From Escherichia coli (GTDB taxonomy: Bacteria; Pseudomonadota; Gammaproteobacteria; Enterobacterales; Enterobacteriaceae), in the NCBI RefSeq assembly GCF_041886205.1, contig NZ_CP169029.1: a stretch of DNA of 64,000 bases, one strand, 5' to 3'. The notes under the pieces were generated by a model. It saw only the letters and a program-made list of their open reading frames with translations. It had not been told where the DNA came from and did no database searches. Both the position numbers and the translations under genes were made by a program. The number at the start of each line of letters is the position of its first letter. Position 1 is the first letter of the stretch. Of the stretch, positions 1,730 through 63,832 are shown piece after piece.

Positions 1730-1738
1730 TTACCTTGA

Positions 1739-5496: not shown

Positions 5497-5592
5497 ATGA
5501 ATGTTTCCAGTAGAACTGTAGTACTGATAAATGTCTTTGCTGCTGTTGGTTTGTTTACTCTTATCTCTATGAGATTTGGCTGGTTTATTTGA
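5497..5592 (+). CDS. yncL: Small membrane protein YncL, 31 aa
   Basis: ATG 5497 to TGA 5590-5592 translates to MNVSSRTVVLINVFAAVGLFTLISMRFGWFI; below ORF-track size cutoff. Confidence 0.75.
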   Translation: MNVSSRTVVLINVFAAVGLFTLISMRFGWFI

Positions 5593-5688
5593 TGTAGTGA
5601 TTTTGCACGCAGCACGTACTGTCAGAGAAATCAACTCTCTGACAGTACGCAAGATCATCTCATACTCTTACGATCTGCAATATTATCC

Positions 5689-7113
5689 TTAATGTTTAAC
5701 CATGACGTGGCGGACGACGGTGTAATCCTCCAGCCCATAAAGTGACATATCCTTGCCGTAACCAGAAAGTTTCTGCCCACCGTGCGGCATTTCACTTACC
5801 AGCATGAAATGGGTATTGACCCAGGTACAACCATATTGCAGCCGTGCGCTGACGCGATGCGCCCTGCCCACATCTTTAGTCCATACCGAAGATGCAAGTC
5901 CGTACTGGCTGTCATTCGCCCAGTTCACCACCTGTTCTTCGTTGTCGAAGAGCGTAACACTCACTACTGGACCAAATACCTCTTTTTGCACGATGGCATC
6001 GTCCTGTAATGCGCCAGCCAGCAGCGTCGGCGCATAGTAATAGCCATTACCCTTGCGCTTTTCACCGCCGGTGATCACTTTGATATGCCCTGTCGCTTTC
6101 GCCTCTTCTACCGCCTTGCTGACGCGTTCGAGATGCGCCAGCGAGCTTAAAGGTCCAAGCTCCGTAGACTCGTCATCCGGCGCACCCGATTTTAACGTTG
6201 CCACCGCAGCACCGAGTTTTTCCACCAGCGTATCGTAAATGCCTTTTTGCGCGTAGATCCGACAAGCCGCAGTACAATCCTGTCCGGCATTGTAATAGCC
6301 AAATGTACGTACACCTTCGACCACTGCTTCAATATCCGCATCATCAAAAACAATCACTGGCGCTTTGCCACCAAGTTCCATATGAGTACGCTTAATGGAG
6401 GGCGCGGTATGGCTGATGATGTGCTCGCCGGTGGCGATAGAGCCCGTCAGCGACACCATCCGCACTTTGGGATGACCGGTCAGCGGATCCCCCACCGTTT
6501 TGCCTCTGCCAAACAGTACGTTAATCACGCCTGCCGGGAAGATATCTTTCGCCAGCTCTGCCAACTTCAACGCGGTCAGCGGGGTAATTTCTGATGGTTT
6601 AAGCACTACGCAGTTCCCTGCCGCCAGCGCCGGAGCCAGTTTCCACGCTGCCATCATCAGCGGATAATTCCACGGTGCGATAGAAGCCACGACCCCCAAC
6701 GGATCGCGACGGATCATCGAAGTATGACCTTCAAGATATTCACCTGCCGCCAGACCATTCAGACAGCGCGCCGCACCCGCGAAAAAGCGAAAAACATCGA
6801 CAATCGCCGGGATTTCATCATTGAACGCACTATGCAGCGGTTTGCCACAATTACGGGACTCCAGTTCGGCAAAAACCTGACCATTTTCTTCGATAACATC
6901 AGCCAGTTTCAGCAGACATTCCGCACGCACTTTCGGCGTGGTTTGCCCCCATTCGGCAAATGCTGCATCTGCCGCGCGCACAGCAGCATCGACCTGCTCT
7001 GCGGATGCCTCGGCAATCTCCAGTAAAACGTCCCCCGTTGCCGGATTATAGACAGGCTGTTTTTCCCCTTCGCCGCTAACCAGTTCTCCGTTAATCAGTA
7101 ACTTATGTTGCAT
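5689..7113 (-). CDS. patD: Gamma-aminobutyraldehyde dehydrogenase PatD (YdcW/Prr), 474 aa
   Basis: ORF 5689..7113; aldehyde dehydrogenase family with catalytic Cys/Glu region. Confidence 0.9.
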
Positions 7114-7134
7114 AGCATATTCCTGTATCAGTGG

Positions 7135-7929
7135 TTATTGACCATTGTCGCCTTCGCGGGTTAGCCACCAGGCCCCCAGGATCGGCAAGGTTGTTACCAA
7201 CATAACCAGCAGTGCCACCACGTTAGTTACCGGTACATCACGCGGTCGCCCAAGCTGATTGAGCAACCACAACGGTAACGTTCGTTCATGACCTGCCGTA
7301 AAAGTCGTAACGATGATTTCATCGAACGACAAGGCAAACGCCAGCATTCCTCCTGCCAGTAGCGCCGAACTGAGATTCGGCAACACTACGTAGCGGAAGG
7401 TTTGCCAGCCATTGGCCCCAAGATCCATTGACGCCTCAACCAGACTCCACGAGGTGCGGCGAAAACGGGCGATGACATTGTTAAACACCACCACTACGCA
7501 AAAAGTCGCATGACCGACCACGATGGTGAAAAATCCCGGCTCCAGATTGATGGTTTTAAAAGCGGTTAATAGCGCCAGACCAGTGACAATGCCCGGCAGC
7601 GCAATGGGCAGCAGCAGTAACAGCGAAATGGCGTTTTTGCCGAAAAAGTCTCGTCGCCACAGCGCGGCAGCTGCCAGCGTCCCTAACACCAGCGCCATTA
7701 ATGTCGCCAGCGCCGCCACTTTAAGTGACAGTGTCACGGCATCAAGAATATCACTACGCTGTGCTGCCACGCTAAACCAGCGCAGCGTCAGGCCCTGCGG
7801 TGGAAAACTAAACGCCGCATCTTCAGTGTTAAACGCATAGGCGGCGATTATCAGGATGGGAAAATGTAGGAAAACAACGCCGCCCCAGGCCGCCAGTTTG
7901 AGGAAAAACGGTGCGCGATCAGAGTGCAT
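7135..7929 (-). CDS. ydcV: ABC transporter permease YdcV, 264 aa
   Basis: ORF 7135..7929; hydrophobic permease sequence; last gene of ydcSTUV. Confidence 0.9.
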
Positions 7930-8860
7930 CGAACGCTCCCAGACGTTTCACGAACGCCAGGTACAGTGCGATAAGAACAATCGGCACCAGGGTGAATGCC
8001 GCCGCCATCGGCATATTGCCAATCGCCCCCTGCTGGGAATAAACCATATTGCCGATAAAATATCCTGGCGGGCCAACCAGCTGCGGGACGATAAAATCGC
8101 CCAGTGTGAGTGAGAAGGTAAAGATAGAGCCAGCGGCAATACCCGGGATCGCCAGCGGCAGCACCACATAGCGAAAGGTTTGTCGTGGACGTGCGCCGAG
8201 ATCAGCCGACGCCTGCAACAATGACGGCGGCAAACGCTCAAGCGCCGCCTGCACGGGCAGGATCATGAACGGTAGCCAGATATAGAGAAACACCAGAAAG
8301 CGCCCCAGCCCGGAAGTTGACAGCGTATTGCCGCCCACCGCAGGTAATGTAAGGAACGCAGTCAGCAGTGGTTCCAGCCCAAGATGTTGTAAAAACCACT
8401 GAGCCACGCCATCTTTTGCCAGCAATAACGTCCAGGCATAGGCTTTAACAATGTAGCTCGCCCACATCGGCAACATTACCGCGATATAAAAAAACGCTTT
8501 CATTTTTCCGCTGGTATAGCGCGCCATATACCACGCCATTGGAAAAGCCAGAATGGCGCTGGCGATAGTGACTGCCACAGCCATGGTCAGCGTGCGGAGA
8601 ATGATGTCGTAATTCGCCGGATTAAACAGCGCACGGATATTCGCCAACGTCAGTTCCGGCGTTACCGACATGGTGAAATCGTCAAAGGTATAAAAGCCCT
8701 GCCATAACAGTGTTAGCAGCGAGCCGAAATAGACAATGCCAAACCACATTAGCGGGCCAAGCAGCAGCAAAAACAGCCCCCGCCCCGGATTACGCCAAAA
8801 GAAACCGGACACCTTACCCAGACCTGGACGTGAAGGTGATTGCAATACATTCATCGCCAT
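7919..8860 (-). CDS. ydcU: ABC transporter permease YdcU, 313 aa
   Basis: ORF 7919..8860; overlaps ydcV start by 11 nt. Confidence 0.9.
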
Positions 8861-9874
8861 TCACCTCTCCTCAACCAGCGGCACCATCACATCACGCGAC
8901 CAGGAAACCATCACCTGTTGTCCGGGCGTGAGCGTGGCAGGCAGTTCTTCGCCTGTCATATTGGCCTGACTCACAAGCAGTTTTTCACCGCCGTTCAATT
9001 TCAGTTCAAAACGAGTTGCCGCGCCCTGATATTGCACCGCCTGGATCGTGCCATTGGCCTGCAGTTCACCAGGGGTGTTGAGGCGGATATGTTCCGGTCG
9101 CAGGGCGAAGCTTCCCGTCATGCCACAAAGTTTCTCTGCCATCAGTCCATCAAAAACATTCGATGTACCAACGAACCCGGCAACAAACGGCGTGTGCGGG
9201 CGCATATAGAGATCGCGCGGGGAATCGACCTGCTCAATGCGTCCATTATTGAAAACCGCCACACGATCGGACATCGATAACGCTTCGCCCTGATCGTGGG
9301 TAACGAAGATAAAAGTGATACCGAGAGACTGTTGCAGTTTTTTCAGTTCCAGCTGCATCTGCTCACGCAATTTGAGATCCAGTGCGCCGAGCGGTTCATC
9401 CAACAGCAATACGCGCGGTTCATTCACCAATGCTCTGGCGATAGCAACCCGCTGGCGCTGACCACCAGAAAGTTGTGACGGTTTACGTTGCTGTACAAAC
9501 CCCAGCGCCACTTTCTCCAGCGCTTCTTGCGCCATTGCGTGCCGCTGCTTTTTATTCACGCCTTTGACCATCAGCCCATAGGCGACGTTGTCAAGAATCG
9601 ACATATGCGGAAACAGCGCATAGTCCTGGAAGACAGTATTCACGTCCCGCTCCCACGGTGGCAGATTGCTGGCGGGTTTACCAAAGATAGAGATAGCCCC
9701 GCCGGAAAGCTGTTCGAAGCCAGCAATCAGGCGCAGGCAGGTAGTTTTGCCGGAGCCGGACGGCCCCAGCATAGAGAAGAACTCACCATCTTTTATCGCA
9801 ATACTGACGCCATCTACTGCGCGCACGTCACCGTACAACCGCGAGACGTTGTCAAACTCCACTGCGTACGTCAT
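8861..9874 (-). CDS. ydcT: ABC transporter ATP-binding protein YdcT, 337 aa
   Basis: ORF 8861..9874; Walker A GPSGSGKTT and LSGGQRQR signature. Confidence 0.9.
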   Translation of the reverse strand: MTYAVEFDNVSRLYGDVRAVDGVSIAIKDGEFFSMLGPSGSGKTTCLRLIAGFEQLSGGAISIFGKPASNLPPWERDVNTVFQDYALFPHMSILDNVAYGLMVKGVNKKQRHAMAQEALEKVALGFVQQRKPSQLSGGQRQRVAIARALVNEPRVLLLDEPLGALDLKLREQMQLELKKLQQSLGITFIFVTHDQGEALSMSDRVAVFNNGRIEQVDSPRDLYMRPHTPFVAGFVGTSNVFDGLMAEKLCGMTGSFALRPEHIRLNTPGELQANGTIQAVQYQGAATRFELKLNGGEKLLVSQANMTGEELPATLTPGQQVMVSWSRDVMVPLVEER

Positions 9875-9891
9875 AAAGCACCCCAGCGAAG

Positions 9892-11037
9892 TTAGCGACC
9901 GCCCATAATGGCAATGTAATCCTGCGTCCAGCGACTGTAGGGAACAAACTTGCCCCCTTCTGCTATAGGCGTTTTCCAGAAGGCTATTTTATCGAAATAG
10001 TTAAAACCGTTTGTTTCACAACCTTTCTCGCCTAATAACGAACTGGCTTTACACCCTTCCGGCACGACGGGTAACGAGCCAAACCAGGCCGCCACATCGC
10101 CCTGCACTTTTGGCGTTAATGACCAGTTCATCCATTTGTAGGCGCAAACCGGATGTTTCGCTTCGCTATGCAGCATGGTGGTATCAGCCCAACCGGTAAC
10201 ACCCTCCTTCGGGAAAACGGTAGCAACAGGCTGGCCTTCGGCTTTCAGGGCGTTGGCCTGATAGGGCCAGGCACTGGAAGCAACCACACCCTCGTTTTTG
10301 AAATCGCTCATTTGCACGGTAGTGTCATGCCAGTAGCGATGGATCAAACTGTGTTGAGCGCGCAGCACTTTCAGCACCGCCTGGTACTGTTCTTCGGTGA
10401 GTTGATACGGATCGCTGATGCCCAACTGCGGCTGAGTGGCTTTAACGAACAACGCAGCGTCCGCAATATAGATCGGGCCATCATAAGCCTGAACGCGGCC
10501 TTTATTGCTCTTGCCGTCCGGCAGATTTTGCTCAACAAAAACCACTTGCCAGCTATCCGGCGGCGTCGGGAAGGTTTTAGTGTTGTACATCAGCAGATTC
10601 GGCCCCCACTGGTATGGTGTGCCGTAAACTTTGCCGCCAACATTGAACCAGTCGCCTTTAACCACGCGGGGATCGAGCGTTTTCCAGTTGGGGATCAATG
10701 CGGTATTAATCGGCTGCACGCGTTTACCCATAATCAGGCGCAGCGAGGCATCGCCGGATGCAGTAACCAGATCGTAACCCCCTTTGGTCATCAGACTGAC
10801 CATTTCATCGGAAGTCGCGGCGGTTTTCACATTCACCGCGCAGCCTGTCTCTTTTTCGAATTGCGTTACCCAGTCGTATTGTTTATCAGTTTGTCCGCGT
10901 TCGATATATCCCGGCCAGGCGATAATATCCAGTCGCCCTTCCGGTTTATCTAAATTGGTAGGCGGTTCGGCGGCGTGAGCGGTCATTATTGTCATGCTGA
11001 GCGCACACAGGCTGCTGCGGGCAAATGTCTTGCTCAT
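9892..11037 (-). CDS. ydcS: Periplasmic substrate-binding protein YdcS (polyamine-binding family), 381 aa
   Basis: ORF 9892..11037; N-terminal signal peptide. Confidence 0.9.
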   Translation of the reverse strand: MSKTFARSSLCALSMTIMTAHAAEPPTNLDKPEGRLDIIAWPGYIERGQTDKQYDWVTQFEKETGCAVNVKTAATSDEMVSLMTKGGYDLVTASGDASLRLIMGKRVQPINTALIPNWKTLDPRVVKGDWFNVGGKVYGTPYQWGPNLLMYNTKTFPTPPDSWQVVFVEQNLPDGKSNKGRVQAYDGPIYIADAALFVKATQPQLGISDPYQLTEEQYQAVLKVLRAQHSLIHRYWHDTTVQMSDFKNEGVVASSAWPYQANALKAEGQPVATVFPKEGVTGWADTTMLHSEAKHPVCAYKWMNWSLTPKVQGDVAAWFGSLPVVPEGCKASSLLGEKGCETNGFNYFDKIAFWKTPIAEGGKFVPYSRWTQDYIAIMGGR

Positions 11038-11281
11038 AAAGTCTTACTCCTGTCGTAATTAATTGTTCAGCCGCCGTGCCGTAAAAATATCTCCTTGTTT
11101 AACCATAGACGGCGGCTTGCAGGCACACCTTCGCCCCTGAGAAAATTTAATCAGGTTGTGAGCTACCGCGCATTATGCCGTCTGTAAGGTTATCTTCTGG
11201 AGTATAGACAAGGAGTTAGGAAATATGACTGCTATTCGAAATTCATATTACCCAATCTAAGAGGAATTAAATTAAACGCTA

Positions 11282-12688
11282 TTACAGCCGTTCTTGAATA
11301 AGTTTGCCTAATTGTTTTACCGCCTGTTCTTCACGTTCTCCCCACTGCCACGCGGTATTAAAACGAAAAAAACGTGACCAGTTTTCACCGGTAGAAAACA
11401 TTTTACCCGGCGCAATACTGATATGATGCGTCAGTGCCGCCAGGCTTAATTCGTCGGCATCTAACGGCTCGGGGAGCTCCAGCCAGAGAAAATAACCGCT
11501 GTCATTATGATGAATTTTAACTTCCGCAGGCAGATAACGCAGCAGTGCCTGCCAGGCACGTTGTTTACGTTCCGCAAGCTGGCGACGCAGGCGACGAAGA
11601 TGGGCGTCGTATCGGCGCGTGGAAAGGTAATCCACCAGCGCAAGCTGCATCGGTGAGCTGGTGGAAAGCGTACTCATCAACTGCAAGCGTTGAATTTTAC
11701 GTGCATGTTTTCCGGCGGCGACCCAACCAATACGAAAACCAGGCACCAGACATTTCGAAAACGAAGAGCAATGCAAAACGCCATCGTGGCGATCCCACGC
11801 TTTCGCAGGCAGCGGTTTTTCCCGTCCAAAATAAAGTTCGCTGTAAACGTCATCTTCAATCAGCGTTACGTTGTACTGATTGAGCAACGCCACCAGTTGT
11901 GCTTTTTTTTGCGGCGTTAAGGTAAATCCGAGTGGATTCTGGCTATTAGTCATCAGCCAGCACGCTTTCACCGGATACTCCTGCAACGCCAGTTCCAACG
12001 CCTGAAGATCGATCCCTTCTTTAACATCCGTCGCCACCGATAACGCCTTCAGCCGTAGCCGCTCCAGCGCCTGCAACGCACCGTAGAAACAAGGATTCTC
12101 TACTATCACCCAATCGCCCGGTTCAGTTACCGCTTGCAAACTGAGGTTTAATGCCTCTAACGCCCCGGCAGTAATGACAATTTCATCAGGAGAAATGGTG
12201 ATGCCCTGTAAGGCATAGCGACGAGCAATAGCCTGACGCAGTTCTGCGTTTCCTGGCGGTAAGTTTTCAATCACGCTCATCGCCGTGGCGGTTTTGCTTA
12301 CCTGCGCCAGCGAGCGGTTTAGTTGTTGTAGGGGGAAAAGTCGCGGGTCGGGAAAGGCCGAGGCAAACGGAACTACCGACGGATCGCGACTGGCCTGCAA
12401 CATATCAAAAATATAAGTGTTGATATCGACTGCTTCATCTCGAGTGACTGGAATGACTGGCGCTTTCGGCATTTTTATTGCCTGTGGCGCAACGTAATAA
12501 CCTGACTGCGGTCGTGCGATAATATATCCCTGACTTTCGAGCAACTGATAGGCATGGCTGACAGTCATAAAGCTCATGCCAGAAAGCGCCACCTGGTCAC
12601 GCAACGAAGGCAAACGATCGCCGGGTTGCCAGATACCCGACGCAATCTGCTCGCGTAATTGTTCTGCAAGCTGCTGGTATTTTTTCAT
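11282..12688 (-). CDS. ydcR: MocR-family regulator YdcR (HTH fused to aminotransferase-like domain), 468 aa
   Basis: ORF 11282..12688; N-terminal GntR-type HTH, C-terminal PLP-fold domain. Confidence 0.9.
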   Translation of the reverse strand: MKKYQQLAEQLREQIASGIWQPGDRLPSLRDQVALSGMSFMTVSHAYQLLESQGYIIARPQSGYYVAPQAIKMPKAPVIPVTRDEAVDINTYIFDMLQASRDPSVVPFASAFPDPRLFPLQQLNRSLAQVSKTATAMSVIENLPPGNAELRQAIARRYALQGITISPDEIVITAGALEALNLSLQAVTEPGDWVIVENPCFYGALQALERLRLKALSVATDVKEGIDLQALELALQEYPVKACWLMTNSQNPLGFTLTPQKKAQLVALLNQYNVTLIEDDVYSELYFGREKPLPAKAWDRHDGVLHCSSFSKCLVPGFRIGWVAAGKHARKIQRLQLMSTLSTSSPMQLALVDYLSTRRYDAHLRRLRRQLAERKQRAWQALLRYLPAEVKIHHNDSGYFLWLELPEPLDADELSLAALTHHISIAPGKMFSTGENWSRFFRFNTAWQWGEREEQAVKQLGKLIQERL

Positions 12689-12766
12689 TATCGAATCGTA
12701 ATTATGTGCAGATGATTCGGCAGTCTATATCAGTTGTTAAAAATGACAACTTTTCGTTAACTGTAA

Positions 12767-13183
<417 letters not shown>

Positions 13184-13228
13184 AATTTCGACTGTCTCTC
13201 GCATGTCATTAACCTTTTTAATTGGCGA

Positions 13229-13405
13229 TTAACTCAAACCGAGTTGTTTCAGAATTGCTTTACGCAATGGTTCTTTAATCTCATCGCTAGGGTGACACGG
13301 CATGACACTGCGCCTCCCGTGAAACCTGAGTTTTAAATGGTTGCTGCCATTCGCTACATCGACGCCCTGAGATTCGAGCCAACGTCTGAACTCGCTTTGT
13401 TTCAC
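13229..13405 (-). CDS. hicA: mRNA-interferase toxin HicA, 58 aa, GTG start
   Basis: Manual translation of minus strand: (V)KQSEFRRWLESQGVDVANGSNHLKLRFHGRRSVMPCHPSDEIKEPLRKAILKQLGLS; directly upstream of hicB. Confidence 0.8.
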   Translation of the reverse strand: MKQSEFRRWLESQGVDVANGSNHLKLRFHGRRSVMPCHPSDEIKEPLRKAILKQLGLS

Positions 13406-13437
13406 ATCGCCTCCCTGCCGCTGAGTATATCAACAAA

Positions 13438-13455
13438 GTAAACATTAGTGTTTAC
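13438..13455. promoter_or_regulatory. Palindrome GTAAAC-N6-GTTTAC in hicA/yncJ divergent promoter region; candidate operator
   Basis: Perfect 6-bp inverted arms 33-50 bp upstream of hicA start. Confidence 0.3.
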
Positions 13456-13626
13456 CTCCGTGTGTAATTTGCTCGAAAATAGCACTAAATCGCCGCAACG
13501 GCAGAATGCAATGCAAAATCAGGAAGGAAGATTCCAGAATTTCTTTGCGCTAATTTGCAAAACTGAATAATAACCTCAAGAAACGATCGGCATCATAGCG
13601 GCAAAAGGTAAGAAAAAGGTGGCAGG

Positions 13627-13857
13627 ATGTTTACGAAGGCGTTATCGGTTGTCTTATTAACGTGTGCGCTGTTCTCAGGACAACTCATGGCAGGGCACAA
13701 AGGACATGAATTTGTGTGGGTAAAGAATGTGGATCATCAGCTGCGTCATGAAGCGGACAGCGATGAATTGCGTGCTGTGGCGGAAGAGTCGGCGGAAGGT
13801 TTGCGCGAGCATTTTTACTGGCAAAAATCGCGCAAACCAGAAGCGGGACAACGTTGA
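13627..13857 (+). CDS. yncJ: Small secreted protein YncJ, 76 aa
   Basis: ORF 13627..13857; N-terminal signal peptide. Confidence 0.85.
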   Translation: MFTKALSVVLLTCALFSGQLMAGHKGHEFVWVKNVDHQLRHEADSDELRAVAEESAEGLREHFYWQKSRKPEAGQR

Positions 13858-13867
13858 GTCATTTATT

Positions 13868-13897
13868 GCCGGATGCGGCGTGACGCCTTACCCGGCC
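13868..13897. repeat. REP (repetitive extragenic palindromic) element
   Basis: GCCGGATGCGGCGTGACGCCTTACCCGGCC matches REP consensus; between convergent yncJ and ydcP. Confidence 0.7.
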
Positions 13898-13948
13898 AAC
13901 AATATCATGCAGATTCAATAAGTTGTGAGTAACCAGAAAACTGGCGTT

Positions 13949-15910
13949 TTACCCTTTTCGCTTCGGCAATGTTTTCAGCAGCTCATCCGGACTTACGGAT
14001 GCCACTACGCTTCCCGGTAACGGCATTTTCAGTATGTGATTTTTGATTTTGCCAATGACGTGCATCTCGCATGGGCGGCAATCAAACTTTAGCGTTAATA
14101 CTTCATCGCCGTTAACCAGTTGCATTGGCGTCGCCTTCCAGCTTTTGATATTGCCTTTCGCCTGTTTCGGGCACAGATTAAAGGCAAAGCGCAGACAATG
14201 CTTGGTGATCATCACCGGGACTTCGCCCTTCTCTTCATGTGCCTCATACGCCGCGTCAATCAGCTGCACACCATAGCGATGATAAAATTCACGCGCTTTC
14301 TGGTTGTATACGTTCGCGAGGAAACTCAGATGAGTTTGCGGATAAACCGGCGCAGGATCAGCAACCGGTTTACGGCTGCCCCGCTGGTAACTGGCAAGAC
14401 GTGCAGCATCCAGCATGTCGGCGGCTTCACGGCGAAACTGGTTTAACAGACTGTTTGGTACAAACAGCGCCCCCGGCAAATTAATTTGCACATCGCGGGC
14501 GTAATAGAGGGTTTGCCCCAGTTTTGCCAGACCATCCTTCAGATTGCTCATTGCTTTTTCGGCGTTATTGGCTTCGTCGAACTGCCCATCCAGCGTATGC
14601 GTGATGCTGACCCCCTCTTCACTGGTGAGGGTCAGAATCAATTGTTCCTGCCAACCGCCCAGTTCAATGTCTACCGCCACCCGACGTTCGCTGGAGGTTT
14701 TTGTCAGTGCCTGCTGCCAGTTATGATCAAGATTACGGTTTAGTGGGTGATGCGGACGAATTTTGTGCAAATCTGCTGGCATTTCATTGGGCCAGACGCG
14801 GTACTGATTTTCTCCGGTTTTCTCGACCGTATTGGCACGAAAACCGACGACTTCACGTTTAATCATCACGTTCAGGCCATCACCATTTGCCAGTGGCTCG
14901 GTGACGGCAACATCGAGATGATCTTTCGCCACTTTCAATACTTCACCCACCGGCAGGCCGATAAATTTCGGCGAATCGAACGCGCCAATATCGCCTTTAC
15001 GGGCATTTACAAAATAATCTGTGCTACCACGGTGGAATGTCTTTTCCGTCGATGGAACAAAGAAATGTTCAGTACGACCTGATGAAGCACGCGTCAGATC
15101 GCCACGTTCTTCAATAATGGCATCCAGCATCTGGCGATAATGAGCAGTGATATTCTTCACGTAGCTCATATCTTTGTAACGCCCTTCAATCTTGAAGGAA
15201 CGTACGCCAGCATCAATCAGCGCGCCGAGGTTGGCAGTCTGATCGTTATCTTTCATCGACAGCAGATGTTTTTCATAGGAAACCACCCGCCCCTGATCGT
15301 CTTTCAATGTGTATGGCAAACGGCACGCCTGCGAGCAATCGCCACGGTTGGCGCTACGCCCTGTTTGCGCATGAGAAATGTAGCACTGACCCGAATAGGC
15401 CACGCACAGTGCGCCATGAATAAAGAATTCAATGGTCGCGTCCGTGGCCTGGTGAATCGCGCGGATCTGCTCAAGATTCAGCTCTCGCGCCAGCACAATC
15501 TGCGTGAAGCCAACATCAGAGAGGAACTTCGCTTTTTCTACTGTACGAATGTCGCACTGCGTACTGGCGTGCAGTTCAATCGGCGGAATATCAAGTTCCA
15601 GAATCCCCATATCCTGAACAATCAGCGCATCGACACCGGTCTGGTAGAGGTCAGTAATCAGCCGTTGCGCGGGTTCCAGCTCATCATCATGCAAAATGGT
15701 GTTAAGCGTGACGAAAATTTTTGCACCATAACGATGGGCAAACGGCACCAGCTCGGCAATATCTTTCAGGCTATTACTGGCATTATGACGGGCACCAAAA
15801 CCAGGGCCGCCGATATAAACAGCATCGGCACCGTGCAAAATAGCTTCGCGGGCAATGGCGGCATCGCGTGCCGGGCTTAACAGTTCAAGTCGATGAGAAG
15901 ATACGGTCAC
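13949..15910 (-). CDS. ydcP: U32-family peptidase YdcP (RlhA, 23S rRNA hydroxycytidine synthase), 653 aa, GTG start
   Basis: ORF 13949..15952; GTG at 15910 gives VTVSSHRLELLSPARD start; peptidase U32 sequence. Confidence 0.85.
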   Translation of the reverse strand: MTVSSHRLELLSPARDAAIAREAILHGADAVYIGGPGFGARHNASNSLKDIAELVPFAHRYGAKIFVTLNTILHDDELEPAQRLITDLYQTGVDALIVQDMGILELDIPPIELHASTQCDIRTVEKAKFLSDVGFTQIVLARELNLEQIRAIHQATDATIEFFIHGALCVAYSGQCYISHAQTGRSANRGDCSQACRLPYTLKDDQGRVVSYEKHLLSMKDNDQTANLGALIDAGVRSFKIEGRYKDMSYVKNITAHYRQMLDAIIEERGDLTRASSGRTEHFFVPSTEKTFHRGSTDYFVNARKGDIGAFDSPKFIGLPVGEVLKVAKDHLDVAVTEPLANGDGLNVMIKREVVGFRANTVEKTGENQYRVWPNEMPADLHKIRPHHPLNRNLDHNWQQALTKTSSERRVAVDIELGGWQEQLILTLTSEEGVSITHTLDGQFDEANNAEKAMSNLKDGLAKLGQTLYYARDVQINLPGALFVPNSLLNQFRREAADMLDAARLASYQRGSRKPVADPAPVYPQTHLSFLANVYNQKAREFYHRYGVQLIDAAYEAHEEKGEVPVMITKHCLRFAFNLCPKQAKGNIKSWKATPMQLVNGDEVLTLKFDCRPCEMHVIGKIKNHILKMPLPGSVVASVSPDELLKTLPKRKG

Positions 15911-15982
15911 ATTCTTATCCAGTAGCTGAAAAATGGCGGCTATTTTAGCCACAAGCGCGACGTTGCGAAATAGTTTTCCCGC

Positions 15983-16519
15983 TTAACTGCGCGGGTAATG
16001 GATGAGGGAATGAAAATGTACGATTTGCTCCCTACCATTACGATAGACATGCGTGACGTCTGCAGCAAATCGAGCGCCTTCCCCACAATTAAGGCTCTGC
16101 CATTCACCATCAACGCACAGATCAAGTTGTCCATCAATGACGACGACATGTTCGATTACCCCCTTCTCATGGGGCGTCGATTCGCTTATTGCACCGGGTG
16201 CCATCTGAATCGAGAAGTGTTCAAAGCAGAGTTGTGGATCATAAGGAAACAGCGAAGTGATCACCATCGCCTGCTGTTGTGGATCATAAACTGAAGGCGT
16301 TGCGGACTGCGGCGGAGAAATAAATGTCGAAAATGGCACGTTCAACCCGGTGGCAATTTTCCATAATGTCGCGACCGTCGGGCTGGACTCATTACGCTCA
16401 ATCTGCCCTAACATCGCTTTAGAAACGCCCGTCGCTTCTGCCAATCGCGAAAGACTCCAGCCGCGCTGCTGGCGTAGTTGTTTAAGTGTGGTGGATAAAA
16501 AGCGAGCGAGATTTTCCAT
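15983..16519 (-). CDS. ydcN: XRE-family HTH regulator with cupin domain YdcN, 178 aa
   Basis: ORF 15983..16519; N-terminal HTH. Confidence 0.85.
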   Translation of the reverse strand: MENLARFLSTTLKQLRQQRGWSLSRLAEATGVSKAMLGQIERNESSPTVATLWKIATGLNVPFSTFISPPQSATPSVYDPQQQAMVITSLFPYDPQLCFEHFSIQMAPGAISESTPHEKGVIEHVVVIDGQLDLCVDGEWQSLNCGEGARFAADVTHVYRNGREQIVHFHSLIHYPRS

Positions 16520-16610
16520 GCGACTCCTCCGGCAAAACGGAAGTTTATCACTTGTGCGTTATAACGGACAAATGCTACGGTACCTGTACGCTATAACGCA
16601 CGAGGTGACT

Positions 16611-17783
16611 ATGCGTCTGTTTTCTGTTCCTCCACCCACGCTACTGGCGGGGTTTCTGGCGGTATTAATTGGCTACGCCAGTTCAGCGGCAATAATCTGG
16701 CAAGCAGCGATTGTCGCCGGAGCCACCACTGCGCAAATCTCTGGCTGGATGACGGCGCTGGGGCTGGCAATGGGCGTCAGTACGCTGACTCTGACATTAT
16801 GGTATCGCGTACCTGTTCTCACCGCATGGTCAACGCCTGGCGCGGCTTTGTTGGTCACCGGATTGCAGGGACTAACACTTAACGAAGCCATCGGCGTTTT
16901 TATTGTCACCAACGCGTTAATAGTCCTCTGCGGCATAACGGGACTCTTTGCTCGTCTGATGCGCATTATTCCGCACTCGCTTGCGGCGGCAATGCTTGCC
17001 GGGATTTTATTACGCTTTGGTTTACAGGCGTTTGCCAGTCTGGATGGTCAATTTACGTTGTGTGGCAGTATGTTGCTGGTATGGCTGGCAACCAAGGCCG
17101 TTGCGCCGCGCTATGCGGTAATTGCCGCGATGATTATTGGGATCGTGATCGTCATCGCGCAAGGTGACGTTGTCACAAATGATGTTGTCTTTAAACCCGT
17201 TCTCCCCACTTATATTACCCCTGATTTTTCGTTTGCTCACAGCCTGAGCGTTGCACTCCCCCTTTTTCTGGTGACGATGGCATCGCAAAACGCACCGGGT
17301 ATCGCAGCAATGAAAGCAGCCGGATATTCGGCTCCTGTTTCGCCATTAATTGTATTTACTGGATTGCTGGCACTGGTTTTTTCCCCTTTCGGCGTTTATT
17401 CCGTCGGTATTGCGGCAATCACCGCGGCTATTTGCCAAAGCCCGGAAGCGCATCCGGATAAAGATCAACGTTGGCTGGCAGCTGCCGTTGCAGGCATTTT
17501 TTATTTGATCGCAGGTCTGTTTGGTAGTGCTATTACCGGGATGATGGCTGCCCTGCCCGTAAGTTGGATCCAGATGTTGGCAGGTCTGGCGCTGTTAAGT
17601 ACCATTAGCGGCAGTTTGTATCAGGCGCTGCATAATGAGCGTGAGCGAGACGCGGCGGTGGTGGCATTTCTGGTAACGGCAAGTGGATTGACGCTGGTCG
17701 GGATTGGTTCTGCGTTCTGGGGATTAATTGCCGGAGGCGTTTGTTACGTGGTGTTGAATTTAATCGCTGACAGAAACCGATGA
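16611..17783 (+). CDS. ydcO: BenE-family inner-membrane transporter YdcO
   Basis: ORF 16350..17783; first ATG at 16611 (MRLFSVPPPTLLAGF), multi-pass membrane protein. Confidence 0.8.
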   Translation: MRLFSVPPPTLLAGFLAVLIGYASSAAIIWQAAIVAGATTAQISGWMTALGLAMGVSTLTLTLWYRVPVLTAWSTPGAALLVTGLQGLTLNEAIGVFIVTNALIVLCGITGLFARLMRIIPHSLAAAMLAGILLRFGLQAFASLDGQFTLCGSMLLVWLATKAVAPRYAVIAAMIIGIVIVIAQGDVVTNDVVFKPVLPTYITPDFSFAHSLSVALPLFLVTMASQNAPGIAAMKAAGYSAPVSPLIVFTGLLALVFSPFGVYSVGIAAITAAICQSPEAHPDKDQRWLAAAVAGIFYLIAGLFGSAITGMMAALPVSWIQMLAGLALLSTISGSLYQALHNERERDAAVVAFLVTASGLTLVGIGSAFWGLIAGGVCYVVLNLIADRNR

Positions 17784-17809
17784 TAAAAAGCGCCATCTTA
17801 CGATGGCGC
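17781..17809 (-). terminator. Rho-independent terminator for ydcL
   Basis: Hairpin GCGCCATC-gtaa-GATGGCGC followed by UUUUU on the minus-strand transcript. Confidence 0.6.
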
Positions 17810-17817
17810 GGCTGGAA

Positions 17818-18486
17818 TTACTTCTTGTTAACGTCAAACATGGTGGCATCGGTCGCCATGTCATCAATAACTTGTTTAATATTTTCGAAAGCCATTGGCG
17901 TACTTTCGTTATTCAGGTCTTTACCTTCGCCCTGACGAACGACTTTGATAACCGGTTTATTAGTCGCTGCATCAATCAGCTCACCTTCAAAATAGAGGCG
18001 AGTATCCATGGTACGGTGGCCTGTAGCCATTTGCGTCCCCGCAACCACTAATGCAACAGGAACCACTTCATAGAATTGCAGCCCTTCTTTGCTGGTATCT
18101 ACACCGGTAATGGCCCCACGGAAAATCAGACTACGCGGCCCAGCGGTGGTAACCAGTGGTTTACGCTGCGCAATCGCTTCTTTCATTTCGGTGTTGGTAT
18201 AGCTCAAAATTTTATCCAGAACTGTCTGCCCTACCTGGGTAGAAGGTTTTGGTACCGGATAATAAGTGATTGGGTTCCAGACAATGCTGTCATATTTGCT
18301 TTGATCAAAACTCGGGTCTACCCAACGTAAAACAGGTTTACCTGTTGCTGAGGTTGTTTCTTTTAAATCAGAGTAATTGTTTAAAAAACCAGAATATTTA
18401 TCTGGCTGGGTGATTTTAGAGGCACAACCAGACAGAGCCAACAAGCCGCATAAAGCTGCAACTTTCGCAAATGATGTGGTACGCAT
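17818..18486 (-). CDS. ydcL: Lipoprotein YdcL, 222 aa
   Basis: ORF 17818..18486; lipobox LSGC after signal peptide. Confidence 0.85.
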   Translation of the reverse strand: MRTTSFAKVAALCGLLALSGCASKITQPDKYSGFLNNYSDLKETTSATGKPVLRWVDPSFDQSKYDSIVWNPITYYPVPKPSTQVGQTVLDKILSYTNTEMKEAIAQRKPLVTTAGPRSLIFRGAITGVDTSKEGLQFYEVVPVALVVAGTQMATGHRTMDTRLYFEGELIDAATNKPVIKVVRQGEGKDLNNESTPMAFENIKQVIDDMATDATMFDVNKK

Positions 18487-45310: not shown

Positions 45311-48300
45311 TTAGAACGTTTTCTTGAAGTTCAGCATCACGCCTTTGTCGCTGATGCCGTCCTCTTTCCAGTTGTACGCATCCAGATTCAGCGAACTTTC
45401 TTTGCTGCTGTACTTCACGCCGACGCTTGCCAGGCTGTTAATGCCGCCGCCCTTCTGACCGTCATCGACGTTAAAGTGCTGACTGCCTGCGCCTGCCAGG
45501 CTTGCCGTACGCTGGCTCTTCGCGTAGCTCAGGTTCGGCCCGCCTTCCAGCGTGGCGTTCGCACTCCAGCCGTCTTTTCCTGCATAATCCAGCTTCAGCC
45601 CGACGATGCTGTCCACCGCCGTTTCGCTGCCGCTGTTCATATTCAGGTTAAAGTCTCCGGCGTTACGCTCCTTATAGCCACCTTCCAGTGTGTGACGCAG
45701 TTTTACACCCGCATATGGCGTAACCTTCAGTCCTTCGCTCGGTTCGAAAGTCTTCGCTCCTTCGCTACGGAACTCCAGGTACTGCTGCTTCACGTCGGTA
45801 TCAGCCGTTTTGTTCGTGTTGCTAAATGCAATCGAGCGGCTGCTGTCAAGGTTGTGAACGTCGTAACGCAAGGCGTTATTCCAGTTCATGCCATTGTCGA
45901 AGGACATCTGATGTTTCAGGCCAAAGAACTGGCTATAACCGCCTGTAACGCCATTATCACCCGCTTTCTGCGCACCATCACCATCGAGACGAGCGATACC
46001 GTACTCCAGACTCATCGTCTGGCTTTCGCTCAGGTCGATGGTTTTACGCAATGCCAGCATGTCGTATTCGGTATTATTACCTAACTCGGCACGCGGATCG
46101 CCTTTCGCGACAACGTTGAACGCCAGACCGTTACCTACCTTCGGTGCGGCATCCGCCAACATACTAAAGCGGTTGCTTAACACGCGCGCTTCGCGGAATA
46201 CCGTGGTCGCCTGGCTACCGCTGACCTGTTTCAGAGCGCTGTTCAGTTCAGCAGTCGTGCCGACGTTCAGGCTGGTAAACAGTTCGTTGTTGGTGTAACC
46301 CGCATCCAGTGCTTTCGCGATGTCATTCACCGAAGCATCTGTTGCCACATCGGTATAAGCGTTTTTGCTCATGGTGACGTCAACGTTACCGCTGGCATCG
46401 GTGCTGCCTTTAGCAGTCCATACCACGGAGGTTGAGGTGATAGCATCCGCGTCGGTCAGGTTGCTGCCCTCCACCACGTTATCAAAATTAACGGTGGTGT
46501 CTGCCGTACAAGCGGTAAACCCGGTGTTGATCCCCACGCCGTTCATGCTGGCATTGTTGACCCTGAGCTTACCGGCGCTGCCATCGGCACTCGTTCCCAC
46601 CACGTAACCGTTGAGATTATTCATGCCGCCATCAACTGCATCACTTCCCGGCGTTAGGCTAACCGTAGTGGGATTCGGTACATCCGGCAACGTATAGTCG
46701 CCATAATGCAATTCCGTGTTATTACCGTTGTTACCGTTCACGCCTTCAACATTGACGCTGTCGCCCTGCTTAATCAGCCCCGATCCTGTCACGCCATCCG
46801 CAATGACCACCGTGCCGTTGTTGACCACGTGACCTTCTGTACCCAGCACGCTGAATGCAAACGAGTCATTGGCGAAGATATTGATGGTGCCGTTGTTCTC
46901 GATCACCGCATCCGCCGTGGCGTTAGCATCGAGTTGCATACCGATCATGCCCGTATCGGTAGTGCCCTCTGTACCGAGGTTGATGGTGCCAGTGTTAACC
47001 AGTTGCGCATTCTTATCACCTTCCATAGCCACAGCACCGGTGCCGCTGATATTCATCGTGCCGTCATTCTGCGCAATGAAGTTACTGTGAGTGAATTTCA
47101 CGGCGCTGGTACTGTCGTGGTCGAAGTTGATGACCCCGTTATCCAGATTCCAGAAGAATGCGCTCTGATCGCCAGCGTTATTGGCGCTCACCACCAGCGA
47201 CTTCGCAGAGACATCAATCGTTCCATCGTTGATAAAGCGACCATTCCCACCCCACATATTGACAGCACCGTTATGTGAGGAATTACTGATGTCCATGTGA
47301 CCAGTGTTATAAAGCGTACCGGACTGATTAATATGCACAGCATTCTTGTTGTTATCGAGGATAAACTCACCGCTGTTATTGAAGACGGCGTTGTTATTAA
47401 CTTCCAGCATACCTGCGTTATTGCCGCCACTGCTACTACCGAGGCGCCAGGTTCCTTCGTTATTGACCCAGGCATCACCGGTTAATGCAGAACCATTGTC
47501 CACTTTGCCATCTTGTAGGTTATTAAAGATGCCACTGGTCTGAATAATACGTTTACTCACCGTACCACTGTTATTAAAGACGCCGGATTTTTGCACAACA
47601 TTGCTAATAGTACCGGAGTTGTTCACCAGATTAGTGCTAGCCCCAGCATACATTGTCACATTACCGTTGATGGTACCCTCATTATTGAGTACCCCCCCCT
47701 GAGCATCAATATTACCCATCGAGCCAGCATTATCTATTACAGCATCTGGTGCCAATTTCACCATGGAGTTAATAATCCCCGTAGAGGCATTTTCGAGCGT
47801 ACCACTCCGAACGTTAATATCACTACCAGAAGCCGTCCCCGCATTAATAACGCTTCCGGGCACTGCGTCAGTTATCACCACAGAATTAATGAAGTTTGTC
47901 GACTCACCATCTGCCACCAGGATATCACCACCAGAGTATTGCAATGAGACATAATTATCGCCCTGGTTATATTCATCCGCACTCTGACAAATACCAAAAG
48001 TACAGAACCTGCCATAGTTAATAATTATTCCTGTTCCATCGCTGTAAAATGCCTGGCCGATATTTGTATCGATATTAATTACACCCGTTATATCATTAAT
48101 TGCCATACCACTATTAATTGCACCCACCGCGAACAGCTGGTTCTCTTGCTGCTTCGTCACGCCCTCATCTGCGGTGAGGTTGATTGTCCCCTGGTTGACA
48201 ACGGTCCCGCCGCTCATCGCCAGCATACCGAAACCTTCGTTATTAACATTGATGGTTCCGGTATTTAACCCACTGGCATCGCCATTTCCGATATCGGTTG

Positions 48301-51196
48301 ACCCCACAAGAACGCCACCGGACATAAGATAAGGATGGGACGTTTGCCAGTAGGATTTACTGATGATATTACCATCGCTGTCCAGTTCGGGAATAAAGCC
48401 ATCGACATTGATTTCCCCGGCGTTGGTCGCCGTGCCTTTAGATGCGGCGACGGCATAAATCCCCGCCCCCTGCAGATTCATGGTGGCGTCGGATTCATTG
48501 ATCACGCTGCCATCATTACTGGCCCACAGACCATAGTTGGCACCGAAATACCATTTCAGAGGGGCTTCAGATATCCCTCCGGCAAAAGCAGGCGTCGTTA
48601 CAGAAAGCAGATTTATCACGCCACCCGACGCATTCGTAACCTGAGAATTCTGGCCACGAGCACGCATTGTCCCCACCGTGGTGAATTGCTCACCGCTAGG
48701 TTTGACATTAATAGTTCCACTATTAGTGATATGTGCACCATTGTTAGCCATCATTAAATCCTGGCTATCCAGCGTGTTAATCACACCTTTGTTTTCAACG
48801 CCGGACTGACTGCCAGTAGCAGAAATAAGCGCACGATTATCGAAGAAATAGTCGGTATCTCTGACTTTACTGGATATATCCGTTACAGAGTTTTTATCAA
48901 ATATAACATTTCCACCGTCCGCCACCGTGACCAACGTAAAGGCACCCACTACCTGACGGATATCCATAGTTGAATGGCCACTAATGTTAACTGTATTATC
49001 ACCAATAATTGATATACCATCTATGATATGCGCGGAGCTATCCCCAGCAACATTAATACCACCATCGATATTAATGGTATTATTCGTACCGGAAACGACC
49101 ATGCCATTCGCCAAGTGATCTTGATATATTAATACACCTTCCACCGTAATATTAACATGACCACTAATATCCACCGTGTTATTTTCACCACTGATCACGC
49201 CGCCGCTTATCGGAGTGATTTGTGCATCAGCGTTATCGCCGAGACTGGAATTAATATTAATGCTTCCGTCAACGCTAATATGGCTGTCATTACCCGTCAG
49301 GCTGAAACCTGTAGCACCCGGCGCATTGCCTTCGCTATCTGGTTGCTGGAATACGTTAATATCTCCGCTTAATTCAACCTGCTCACGGTCACCCACAATG
49401 GATACCCCAGTTCCGTATCGCGAAACATCAATTTCGCCCACGTTACCAAAAACTTCATCATCACCATCTATCAGAACTCCCACAGAACCGGAATCCGTAA
49501 CAACAATCTTGCCTTTATTACTTATCTGCGAGTTATTACCGGCGATATAAATACCCGTTGCCCCTCCGCTGACGTAGAGGTCACCTTCCTGGCTAATTGT
49601 TGCATTGTGCCCAGCAACTTTTGTCCCTACCGCATTCTCACCGTCAACCGTCATATCCCCGGCGATATTCATCTCATTGCCATCGCCAGTGATGGTTATA
49701 CCGGTGGCATTCTCACCCAAAATATTAAGATCATAGGTCGCCAGGGTAATACTATTGTTGTCGCCGATAATCTCCATGCCGGTTGTATCGTCTTTAACCA
49801 ACATCGAGCCAGCAAGCGAAATACTGCTGCTGTCCCCGGTGATTTTTACACCAGTACCGTTATTTGTCGTGGTGATGTCCCCCACATTGACAAAGGTAGT
49901 ATTATCACCATTGATTAACACGCCATAGGGGTTTCCATCACCGTCCGCCTGACCAACATTGATATCACCAATGTTCATAAAGGTTGTCTGATCGCCATCC
50001 AGCAACACACCGATGGAACTGTCATCCACCACAGTAATATTACCTTTATTACTGATGACAGTACCCTTACCCTCGGCGTCAATACCGTGTGCGCCACCGC
50101 TGACGTATAAGTCACCCTGCTGCCTTACAATGGCATCTTCGCCGATAATTTTTGACCCCGTTGAATTTGCACCATCAACGGTCATGTCGCCTTTGATTTC
50201 AACGCGGGCATCATCCCCTGTAATCACACTCCCCGTGCCTCCATTCGCGATTTCAACATCACCAACGGTGTCCAGCGTGGTACGATCGCCATTAACAATA
50301 ACTGCCGCCCCACCATCAACTTCCGTCTCACCATTATTAGTAATGGTGATATCATCACCGGTAAGAATACCTACCACCGAACCTTCACCAATCGCGGTAG
50401 TTTTGCCATCGTTGTTCAGGGTGATGTCGTTACCGTCAACGTTTATCACAACGCCGCCATTCAGCGCGATGTTGCCGCCATGGTCGGTAATAGTGGCATC
50501 GTTAATATGGAAATGTTCGCCAGTTGTACCGTCTGCGGTGGTGAGTGACTCTATGATTATTTCGATTTTTCCCGCTTCGTCATAGCGCCAGGTGGAGGTT
50601 CCGCCAGGATTGACGCCATTGAACGAAGCCGTGTTAGCCGCCTCGTCGACTAACCAATCCTTCACGATTGTGGTAGTGCCGCCAGGTCCGGTAAGCGTAT
50701 AGCTGCCATCGTCATTTTTGGTGTAGGTAAAGGTGGTATCACGTAATTTTAGGGTCTTCGCGTCCTGATCCCAGGTGACATCGTTTTTATAGACCACAGG
50801 ATCGTGTTTGACTGGCGTGTCATCGCCACCGTCGTCCGGGGTATCATCGCCGCCATCATCCGGCGGGACAGGTGTGTCGCCGCCATCATCCGGCACCGGA
50901 GACGGATCGTCATGATGATTATTATTATCGTGGAGTGCATATACTGCGACGCCTGTGACTGCCGCTGCCAGCCCCACTGCAGCCCAGGGTAATAACTCAT
51001 TATCTTCAACTGATTTACACTCTGCCGGCAGCTTTTCTAGCTGTTCTTTACTTAGTGATTTAATATTAGCCGGGCAGCTAATCTTGCTGGATTTACGAGA
51101 TTCATCCGATGTTTCCGCTATCGACGTATCTGCCGCCCATGTCTGACTGCTTAACGCCATTGCAACACAGACACTGAGCAATTTTTTCCTTTGCAT
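45311..51196 (-). CDS. ydbA: Intact autotransporter YdbA, 1961 aa (signal peptide, repetitive beta-helix passenger, C-terminal beta-barrel)
   Basis: Single ORF 45311..51196; signal peptide MQRKKLLSVCVAMALSSQTWA; GD/GN-rich repeats; C-terminal barrel ending KKTF; SD GAGGA upstream of ATG. Confidence 0.85.
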   Translation of the reverse strand: MQRKKLLSVCVAMALSSQTWAADTSIAETSDESRKSSKISCPANIKSLSKEQLEKLPAECKSVEDNELLPWAAVGLAAAVTGVAVYALHDNNNHHDDPSPVPDDGGDTPVPPDDGGDDTPDDGGDDTPVKHDPVVYKNDVTWDQDAKTLKLRDTTFTYTKNDDGSYTLTGPGGTTTIVKDWLVDEAANTASFNGVNPGGTSTWRYDEAGKIEIIIESLTTADGTTGEHFHINDATITDHGGNIALNGGVVINVDGNDITLNNDGKTTAIGEGSVVGILTGDDITITNNGETEVDGGAAVIVNGDRTTLDTVGDVEIANGGTGSVITGDDARVEIKGDMTVDGANSTGSKIIGEDAIVRQQGDLYVSGGAHGIDAEGKGTVISNKGNITVVDDSSIGVLLDGDQTTFMNIGDINVGQADGDGNPYGVLINGDNTTFVNVGDITTTNNGTGVKITGDSSSISLAGSMLVKDDTTGMEIIGDNNSITLATYDLNILGENATGITITGDGNEMNIAGDMTVDGENAVGTKVAGHNATISQEGDLYVSGGATGIYIAGNNSQISNKGKIVVTDSGSVGVLIDGDDEVFGNVGEIDVSRYGTGVSIVGDREQVELSGDINVFQQPDSEGNAPGATGFSLTGNDSHISVDGSININSSLGDNADAQITPISGGVISGENNTVDISGHVNITVEGVLIYQDHLANGMVVSGTNNTINIDGGINVAGDSSAHIIDGISIIGDNTVNISGHSTMDIRQVVGAFTLVTVADGGNVIFDKNSVTDISSKVRDTDYFFDNRALISATGSQSGVENKGVINTLDSQDLMMANNGAHITNSGTINVKPSGEQFTTVGTMRARGQNSQVTNASGGVINLLSVTTPAFAGGISEAPLKWYFGANYGLWASNDGSVINESDATMNLQGAGIYAVAASKGTATNAGEINVDGFIPELDSDGNIISKSYWQTSHPYLMSGGVLVGSTDIGNGDASGLNTGTINVNNEGFGMLAMSGGTVVNQGTINLTADEGVTKQQENQLFAVGAINSGMAINDITGVINIDTNIGQAFYSDGTGIIINYGRFCTFGICQSADEYNQGDNYVSLQYSGGDILVADGESTNFINSVVITDAVPGSVINAGTASGSDINVRSGTLENASTGIINSMVKLAPDAVIDNAGSMGNIDAQGGVLNNEGTINGNVTMYAGASTNLVNNSGTISNVVQKSGVFNNSGTVSKRIIQTSGIFNNLQDGKVDNGSALTGDAWVNNEGTWRLGSSSGGNNAGMLEVNNNAVFNNSGEFILDNNKNAVHINQSGTLYNTGHMDISNSSHNGAVNMWGGNGRFINDGTIDVSAKSLVVSANNAGDQSAFFWNLDNGVINFDHDSTSAVKFTHSNFIAQNDGTMNISGTGAVAMEGDKNAQLVNTGTINLGTEGTTDTGMIGMQLDANATADAVIENNGTINIFANDSFAFSVLGTEGHVVNNGTVVIADGVTGSGLIKQGDSVNVEGVNGNNGNNTELHYGDYTLPDVPNPTTVSLTPGSDAVDGGMNNLNGYVVGTSADGSAGKLRVNNASMNGVGINTGFTACTADTTVNFDNVVEGSNLTDADAITSTSVVWTAKGSTDASGNVDVTMSKNAYTDVATDASVNDIAKALDAGYTNNELFTSLNVGTTAELNSALKQVSGSQATTVFREARVLSNRFSMLADAAPKVGNGLAFNVVAKGDPRAELGNNTEYDMLALRKTIDLSESQTMSLEYGIARLDGDGAQKAGDNGVTGGYSQFFGLKHQMSFDNGMNWNNALRYDVHNLDSSRSIAFSNTNKTADTDVKQQYLEFRSEGAKTFEPSEGLKVTPYAGVKLRHTLEGGYKERNAGDFNLNMNSGSETAVDSIVGLKLDYAGKDGWSANATLEGGPNLSYAKSQRTASLAGAGSQHFNVDDGQKGGGINSLASVGVKYSSKESSLNLDAYNWKEDGISDKGVMLNFKKTF
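50818..50896. repeat. Imperfect tandem repeat (three ~24-30-bp units) encoding Pro/Asp/Gly-rich linker in ydbA
   Basis: Repeated TCGCCGCCATCATCCGG units encoding PDDGGD(D)TP x3. Confidence 0.6.
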
Positions 51197-62790: not shown

Positions 62791-63726
62791 ATGTCGCAAA
62801 ATCAAGAAATTAGTAAGAAAGAACAATACAACCTGAACAAATTACAAAAACGCCTGCGTCGTAACGTGGGCGAAGCCATTGCTGACTTCAATATGATTGA
62901 AGAAGGCGATCGCATCATGGTTTGCCTCTCAGGGGGTAAAGACAGCTATACCATGCTGGAGATTCTGCGCAATTTGCAGCAAAGCGCGCCAATCAATTTT
63001 TCGCTGGTGGCTGTTAACCTCGATCAAAAGCAACCGGGCTTCCCGGAACACGTTCTGCCCGAGTATCTTGAAAAGCTGGGCGTTGAGTACAAGATTGTGG
63101 AAGAGAACACTTACGGTATCGTGAAAGAGAAGATTCCGGATGGTAAAACAACATGTTCTCTGTGTTCTCGTCTTCGTCGCGGTATCCTTTATCGCACCGC
63201 AACGGAACTGGGGGCGACGAAGATCGCGCTGGGTCACCATCGTGACGATATCCTGCAAACGCTGTTCTTAAATATGTTCTACGGCGGCAAGATGAAAGGT
63301 ATGCCTCCGAAACTGATGAGCGATGATGGCAAACATATCGTTATTCGTCCGCTGGCCTACTGCCGCGAGAAAGATATTCAGCGATTTGCCGATGCAAAAG
63401 CGTTCCCGATTATTCCGTGCAACCTGTGCGGTTCACAGCCTAACCTGCAACGACAAGTGATTGCTGACATGTTGCGTGACTGGGATAAACGTTATCCGGG
63501 GCGTATCGAGACGATGTTCAGCGCGATGCAGAATGTGGTGCCGTCGCATCTGTGCGATACCGACCTGTTCGATTTTAAAGGCATTACCCACGGTTCTGAA
63601 GTGGTTAACGGGGGGGATCTGGCGTTTGATCGCGAAGAGATCCCACTACAACCGGCGGGCTGGCAGCCTGAAGAAGATGAAAATCAGTTGGATGAGTTAC
63701 GGCTGAATGTGGTTGAAGTGAAATAA
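62791..63726 (+). CDS. ttcA: tRNA 2-thiocytidine(32) synthetase TtcA (YdaO), 311 aa
   Basis: ORF 62791..63726; PP-loop SGGKDS motif and CxxC clusters. Confidence 0.9.
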
Positions 63727-63729: not shown

Positions 63730-63832
63730 GGATAGCGCCCGATGCGCAAGCGTATCGGGCTACTCTTATGGAGGCCGGATAAGACGCGGTCAGCGTCGCA
63801 TCCGGCAATCCCGAATAAGATGTTTACTCTTG
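63730..63832. repeat. REP/BIME-type extragenic palindromes downstream of ttcA
   Basis: Palindrome GCCCGATGCGCAAGCGTATCGGGC and GCCGGATAAGACGCGGTCAGCGTCGCATCCGGC (REP consensus). Confidence 0.65.

Follow-up and report, generated by a model that had tools for sequence, protein, structure and literature searches.

In Escherichia coli K-12 the genes ydcL and ydcO are separated by an insertion sequence, and in the 64-kb stretch of E. coli DNA analysed here (the window) only 34 bp lie between them. Was this site in the window never occupied, or was an element once present and later lost or missed? The K-12 side of the comparison was correctly given in a sequence-only reading of the window: MG1655 (NC_000913.3) has an annotated IS609 at 1503161–1504908, between ydcL and ydcO, and alignment supports this placement. 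The K-12 element belongs to the IS200/IS605 family and consists of a tnpA pseudogene, yncK, and insQ (tnpB). That reading had labelled insQ a transposase gene, which needs correction: insQ is currently annotated as a "putative RNA-guided DNA endonuclease" (a TnpB), and the true transposase gene is tnpA, that is, yncK.

In the window, ydcO (16611..17783, + strand) encodes a BenE-family transporter (NCBIfam TIGR00843, E = 1.7e-216) in 390 codons followed by a TGA stop at 17781–17783, and ydcL (17818..18486, − strand) encodes a DUF3313 lipoprotein of 222 aa, as given by the ORF listing and the RefSeq annotation of matches. The identities of ydcO, ydcL and tehB are taken from the RefSeq annotation under 100%-identical matches, and the ydcO coordinates agree with the PGAP annotation in strain ET201, which is identical to the window there. 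The two genes converge on an unoccupied spacer of 34 bp (17784..17817). Its sole hairpin, read on the − strand, is GCGCCATC-GTAA-GATGGCGC (17809..17790), with an 8-bp stem in which six of the eight pairs are G-C and a 4-nt loop, followed by TTTTTATCAT; the 3′ tail on the same strand, TTTTTAT (17789..17783), runs into the ydcO stop codon. The hairpin was flagged by a terminator scan and has a folding energy of –16.3 kcal/mol (z = –2.66 vs. shuffled sequences). With its G+C-rich 8-bp stem, 4-nt loop and T5 tail right after the ydcL stop, it resembles Rho-independent terminators in other convergent spacers and looks like the intrinsic terminator of ydcL, a function predicted from sequence. Since the opposite strand carries an A-tract upstream of the hairpin and no proper U-tract, the predicted terminator is probably unidirectional. 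ORF coordinates, terminator scan and fold thus agree with the earlier description of 34 bp that hold the ydcL terminator hairpin alone.

Alignment with K-12, chosen beforehand as a check, showed that IS609 is absent from the window and that the junction is seamless. The window is reversed relative to K-12, with window 1–17781 corresponding to 1522691–1504910 and 17782–41515 to 1503161–1479417. Compared with K-12-type loci there is a single unambiguous breakpoint, T17781|G17782, which lies inside the ydcO stop codon (T|GA). The K-12 block absent from the window is 1,748 bp long and reads ATTGACATCC...GGCGCACCG in window orientation. Nothing but the element distinguishes the occupied allele from the empty one, and its insertion in K-12 produced no target duplication. 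The empty allele therefore fixes the boundaries of IS609 to the base, 1 nt off the MG1655 annotation, and reveals that the stop codon of K-12 ydcO is IS-derived: K-12 YdcO ends in ...ADRNRY*, where the IS end supplies TAT-TGA, vs. ...ADRNR* in the window, and the ydcO lengths of 1176 nt in K-12 and 1173 nt in the window agree with one IS-derived extra codon.

No trace of the element was detected. The best tblastn hit of IS609 TnpA or TnpB in the whole window had E = 0.73, and the 34-bp spacer contains no tnpA or tnpB ORF. A blastn-short search with full IS609 returned only 14–16-mers elsewhere in the window, at chance level, with no element ends and no scar. Because the only hairpin in the spacer also occurs in IS-free Salmonella, it is not an IS609 subterminal hairpin. 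The window junction provides a clean reference for the pre-insertion sequence, and presence or absence of IS609 here is usable as a lineage marker.

The site retains the target motif of the element. 5′-TTTATC-3′ lies at 17782..17787 on the − strand, and K-12 IS609 sits between 17782 and 17781, with its left end at 17782. The motif adjoins the tnpA-side (left) end at five of five independent IS609 sites (ydcL/ydcO, a DUF3251 gene near nrdR, yfeD/gltX, a TetR gene near ytfB, and hslO/yhgE); the sequences beside the right ends bear no relation to one another. In the window it forms the last part of the ydcL T-tail, and the − strand continues directly as ATCGGTTTCTG...; the pre-insertion sequence is TTTATC followed by ATCGGTTTCTGTCAGC..., and the window allele 3′ of TTTATC reads ATCGGTTTCTGTCAGCGATT. 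With its motif kept and a junction equal to the occupied allele minus the element, free of duplication and scar, the window contains an unoccupied IS609 target site. The arrangement is similar to the empty sites of IS608 (TTAC) and ISDra2 (TTGAT) in having a short motif 5′ of the left end, no duplication and a lagging-strand template; it differs in that the IS609 motif was inferred from five sites.

TTTATC occurs 85 times in the 64-kb window, so the motif is necessary, yet does not alone account for why this position was used. The harmless position between convergent genes probably explains the persistence of the insertion. GC skew on the + strand of the window is negative in every 8-kb bin, which by replication logic would make the TTTATC-bearing − strand the lagging-strand template. 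Transposition of IS200/IS605 elements is reportedly coupled to replication, with a bias for this template, and the strand of the motif here fits that pattern.

We examined the distribution of the two alleles using two 120-bp junction-spanning probes against 5,426 complete E. coli genomes. The empty ydcO/ydcL junction was found in 2,046 genomes (37.7%) and the ydcO-IS609 junction in 3,265 (60.2%), with about 115 (about 2%) having neither. Among the matches listed, the 16 closest genomes (99.8–100% identical over 2 kb; ET201, 6EVA, XJ5.2, wlxctx60 and VE-T9 among them) are all free of IS609 at the site. As the empty state is found in about 38% of complete E. coli genomes, the absence of IS609 is correctly observed but ordinary. 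IS609 is regularly listed among the elements of E. coli, and strains other than K-12 that lack it represent a common presence/absence polymorphism that is already known.

Outgroups indicate which state is older. In a Salmonella chromosome fragment, ydcO and ydcL are convergent across a spacer of ~53 bp that is IS-free and contains the same hairpin stem. When species-representative genomes were scanned with the hairpin and the ydcL 3′ end, four Escherichia genomes matched. Three of these are non-coli, share 86–90% identity with the window and run through the site without interruption, with ydcO and ydcL directly adjacent, the hairpin kept and no IS present. The empty state of Salmonella and these three Escherichia indicates that absence of IS609 is ancestral. 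Where E. coli has GATGATAAAAA, the same three read GATAATCCGAA, GATAATAAGAA or GATAATCAGAA and contain neither the T5 tail nor TTTATC. The hairpin stem is thus kept in Salmonella and other Escherichia, and only E. coli and its closest relative have the T5 tail and TTTATC. As the outgroups have neither, a canonical tail for the terminator and a target for IS609 appear to have arisen together.

The fourth genome, Escherichia sp. MOD1-EC7003 (non-coli, ~95% identical), is a different case. Its homology to the window begins exactly at 17782, and the junction carries a ~42-nt scar in which a 28-nt stretch matching the IS609 right-end hairpin at 93% is fused to left-end sequence. The scar lies at 218–290 of the extracted locus, and most of sutR-ydcO is deleted. 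This shows that an IS609-type element once sat there in a non-coli Escherichia and decayed imprecisely. The history of the site is therefore more than one clean event: the element could have inserted repeatedly, been passed on by recombination, or arrived earlier. As a positive control for a decayed IS609, the MOD1-EC7003 scar has no counterpart at the window junction.

Taken together, these results favor reading window positions 17784–17817 as an intact, never-occupied ydcO/ydcL spacer in a lineage that retains the ancestral state, to which we assign a probability of roughly 85%. Allele frequencies and outgroups point to a single derived IS609 insertion. In the mechanism we propose, the starting point is that the T-tail of the putative ydcL terminator happens to spell TTTATC, the sequence always found directly 5′ of the IS609 left end. 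In the lineage of K-12 and of some 60% of sequenced E. coli, IS609, an IS200/IS605 "peel-and-paste" single-strand transposon, would have integrated 3′ of this motif on the lagging-strand template without target duplication, splitting the ydcO stop (T|GA), with the IS end adding a Tyr codon and providing the new TGA. Decay of tnpA would afterwards have fixed IS609 in place, and the lineage of the window would simply have kept the pre-insertion state. The IS609 copies inspected at the ydcO/ydcL site all have a dead tnpA. In K-12 mutation-accumulation lines, 0 transpositions of IS609 were recorded, its single copy being immobile (PMC5009759).

Other insertions have used the same spacer. An IS200C of ~709 bp occupies the A/T-run at 17785..17789, empty in the window, in another lineage (EBJ003, 7/2, AR_0067 and others); at least 25 genomes contain it, oriented like IS609 and offset from the IS609 point by 3–6 bp, and in EBJ003 (1189–1894 of the extracted locus) its left end likewise adjoins the terminator T-run. 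In PT62 and LP5-1, pigeon isolates of the window's own lineage, an IS1 at the ydcL stop codon is surrounded by a duplication of the 8 bp that are single-copy and empty in the window (17814..17821). Three IS families (IS609, IS200C and IS1) have thus used the 34-bp spacer, and IS609, IS200C and the IS609-like scar of the other Escherichia all adjoin the same few bases.

This suggests a further reading, which we regard as doubtful, in which the ydcL terminator tail is a recurrent IS200/IS605 landing pad and the empty allele provides both TAM and target for homing by InsQ, if InsQ is active. According to the established TnpB mechanism, an empty allele consists of the TAM plus the target of the resident copy's omega-RNA. 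By construction, the allele in the window would combine the TAM (TTTATC) and the target (ATCGGTTTCTGTCAGC...) of a resident IS609 omega-RNA. An active InsQ/TnpB would cut empty alleles arising by recombination or excision, leading to retention or "homing" of IS609, and such homing, if true, would help explain why 60% of E. coli genomes carry an element with a dead transposase at precisely this position. K-12 IS609 gave no Rfam match to an omega-RNA or to IS605-orfB, so the guide region is placed from the element boundary only, and a literature search on InsQ plus TnpB returned nothing specific about the InsQ TAM. Used by three IS families, the spacer is a convenient natural locus for testing homing by TnpB (InsQ).

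A never-occupied spacer has to be distinguished from one that lost IS609 without a scar, either because TnpA excised it precisely or because an empty allele replaced it by recombination. IS200/IS605 elements excise seamlessly, and a lineage that gained and then lost the element would therefore look the same as one that was never occupied. A transposase acting in trans is available in the species, as some E. coli, e.g., strain 117, have an intact IS609 tnpA, and MOD1-EC7003 indicates that an IS609-type element was once at this junction outside E. coli proper. However, that one documented loss was imprecise, leaving a scar and a flanking deletion, and the empty outgroups, the empty state of all 16 closest genomes among the matches listed, the dead tnpA of the inspected copies at the site and the lack of movement in the K-12 lines all argue against excision, making it an unlikely history for this lineage.

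Mobile DNA of a diverged or unknown kind (MITEs, novel IS families, small islands) could also be hidden elsewhere in the window, which the sequence-only reading had described as free of mobile elements over its whole 64 kb. That description holds for IS elements and prophages, of which none were found, and leaves REP palindromes, hokB/sok, hicAB and ortT out of account. IS remnants, set beforehand as the refuting observation, were absent from the plasmid, phage and transposase screens of the window. In megablast searches of the whole window, 72,556 plasmids gave 15–32 matching records, all mislabelled chromosomes, chromosome fragments or housekeeping homologues, and 50,697 phage records gave 2–4 per chunk, all with host flanks or tiny unannotated contigs. 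Queries with IS609 TnpA/TnpB, IS2 InsC/InsD, IS30 InsI, IS1 and PinR found nothing better than E = 0.2 in the window by tblastn, and short-word blastn with four IS sequences gave a 16-mer as its longest match. The window has no long repeats beyond chance-level 25–37-mers. Rfam identified MicC, sok and RydC only, with no tRNA genes.

For annotation we relied on ET201, used only as a proxy for window 1–47158 (99.1% identity) and 50847–62840 (99.2%); the PGAP annotation of the corresponding ET201 interval contains no transposase, integrase or phage genes. ET201 was rejected as a stand-in for the whole window. Its identity is 100% over 2 kb but only 99.1% overall, its ydbA 5′ region differs, and beyond uspF, where ttcA is intact in the window, it has sitABCD and a Rac-like prophage. 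Searches with long consensus patterns for REP and ERIC, allowing up to seven substitutions, were too rigid and found nothing; short cores then revealed REP-like palindromes at 13867..13900 (TGCCGGATGCGGCGTGACGCCTTACCCGGCCAAC) and, 3′ of ttcA, at 63773..63808 (GCCGGATAAGACGCGGTCAGCGTCGCATCCGGCA), with a partial one near 45232–45257.

These two palindromes and the partial one, the hok/sok, hicAB and ortT toxin modules, and the reliance of the screens on known elements and high-identity DNA searches speak for hidden mobile DNA, as does the lack of a K-12 counterpart to the 4.1-kb 5′ part of ydbA and to the AT-rich spacer of 400 bp between ydbA and ydbL. Against this, all genes of the interval are named housekeeping or chromosomal genes in the annotation of the 99.1%-identical genome, the window is collinear with K-12 apart from deletions and divergent alleles, repeats of ≥25 nt do not exceed chance level, Rfam indicates no tRNA/tmRNA integration hot spots, and the few matching plasmid and phage records all include host DNA. 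We consider undetected mobile DNA quite improbable. An assembly artefact, in which the IS609 repeat was collapsed or skipped, deserves almost no weight: assemblies classically break at IS elements, but the junction is clean and continuous, is the same in many independently finished genomes (contiguous in 2,046), and belongs to a ydcO with its own in-frame TGA, unlike the IS-supplied stop of K-12.

Other loci in the window also differ from K-12. The autotransporter gene ydbA (45311..51196, − strand) is one uninterrupted ORF of 1,961 aa, vs. a K-12 gene split by IS2D and IS30C, in line with the earlier claim that IS2 and IS30 are missing here; the exact IS2D and IS30C points cannot be placed on the window, as 47465–51599 is too divergent to align with K-12 ydbA. 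The 5′ two-thirds of the gene (passenger domain, 47465–51599) aligns partly to ET201, at ~77% identity, and matches six other genomes at 99.9% as far as 50894. These six are the best matches and end at window 50894, no complete genome matching the whole ydbA-ydbL stretch. The 5′ part looks like a hypervariable surface-protein allele, probably one that recombines. The 400-bp spacer in the ydbL/ydbA gap is very AT-rich and shows no IS trace, and at window 51197–51599 the feaR-feaB-tynA-paaZ...paaY region (~19 kb, K-12 1446207–1465391) is absent.

At the far end of the window, ttcA is intact (62791..63726, + strand, 311 aa), its first ~50 bp corresponding to K-12 ttcC at the right end of Rac. K-12 homology ends at 1434959, the Rac right end, and the window runs into intact ttcA and the dbpA side, indicating that the Rac attB site is unoccupied. 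In the window, uspF, ttcA and dbpA follow one another without a break; ET201, otherwise the closest genome among the matches listed, carries sitABCD, a gene for a diguanylate cyclase and a Rac-like prophage with its own IS1 at that point.

A ~1.6-kb deletion relative to K-12 (1477816–1479416) maps to window 41507–41515, with a 9-bp overlap at the junction. It removes the 3′ part of ynbA, all of ynbB and the 5′ part of ynbC, leaving a fusion ORF of 556 aa (40037–41707, − strand); the deletion is also present in ET201, where the pieces are annotated as pseudogenes. Next to it, ydbD (41872–44184, − strand) is represented by ORFs of 544 and 206 aa vs. 768 aa in K-12, and the ET201 copy is annotated as frameshifted. 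ynbD (38731–40179) looks intact in the window, and its ET201 copy has an internal stop. The gapC homologue (30221–31222, + strand) is an intact type I GAPDH gene by annotation in near-identical ET201, and K-12 gapC is a pseudogene.
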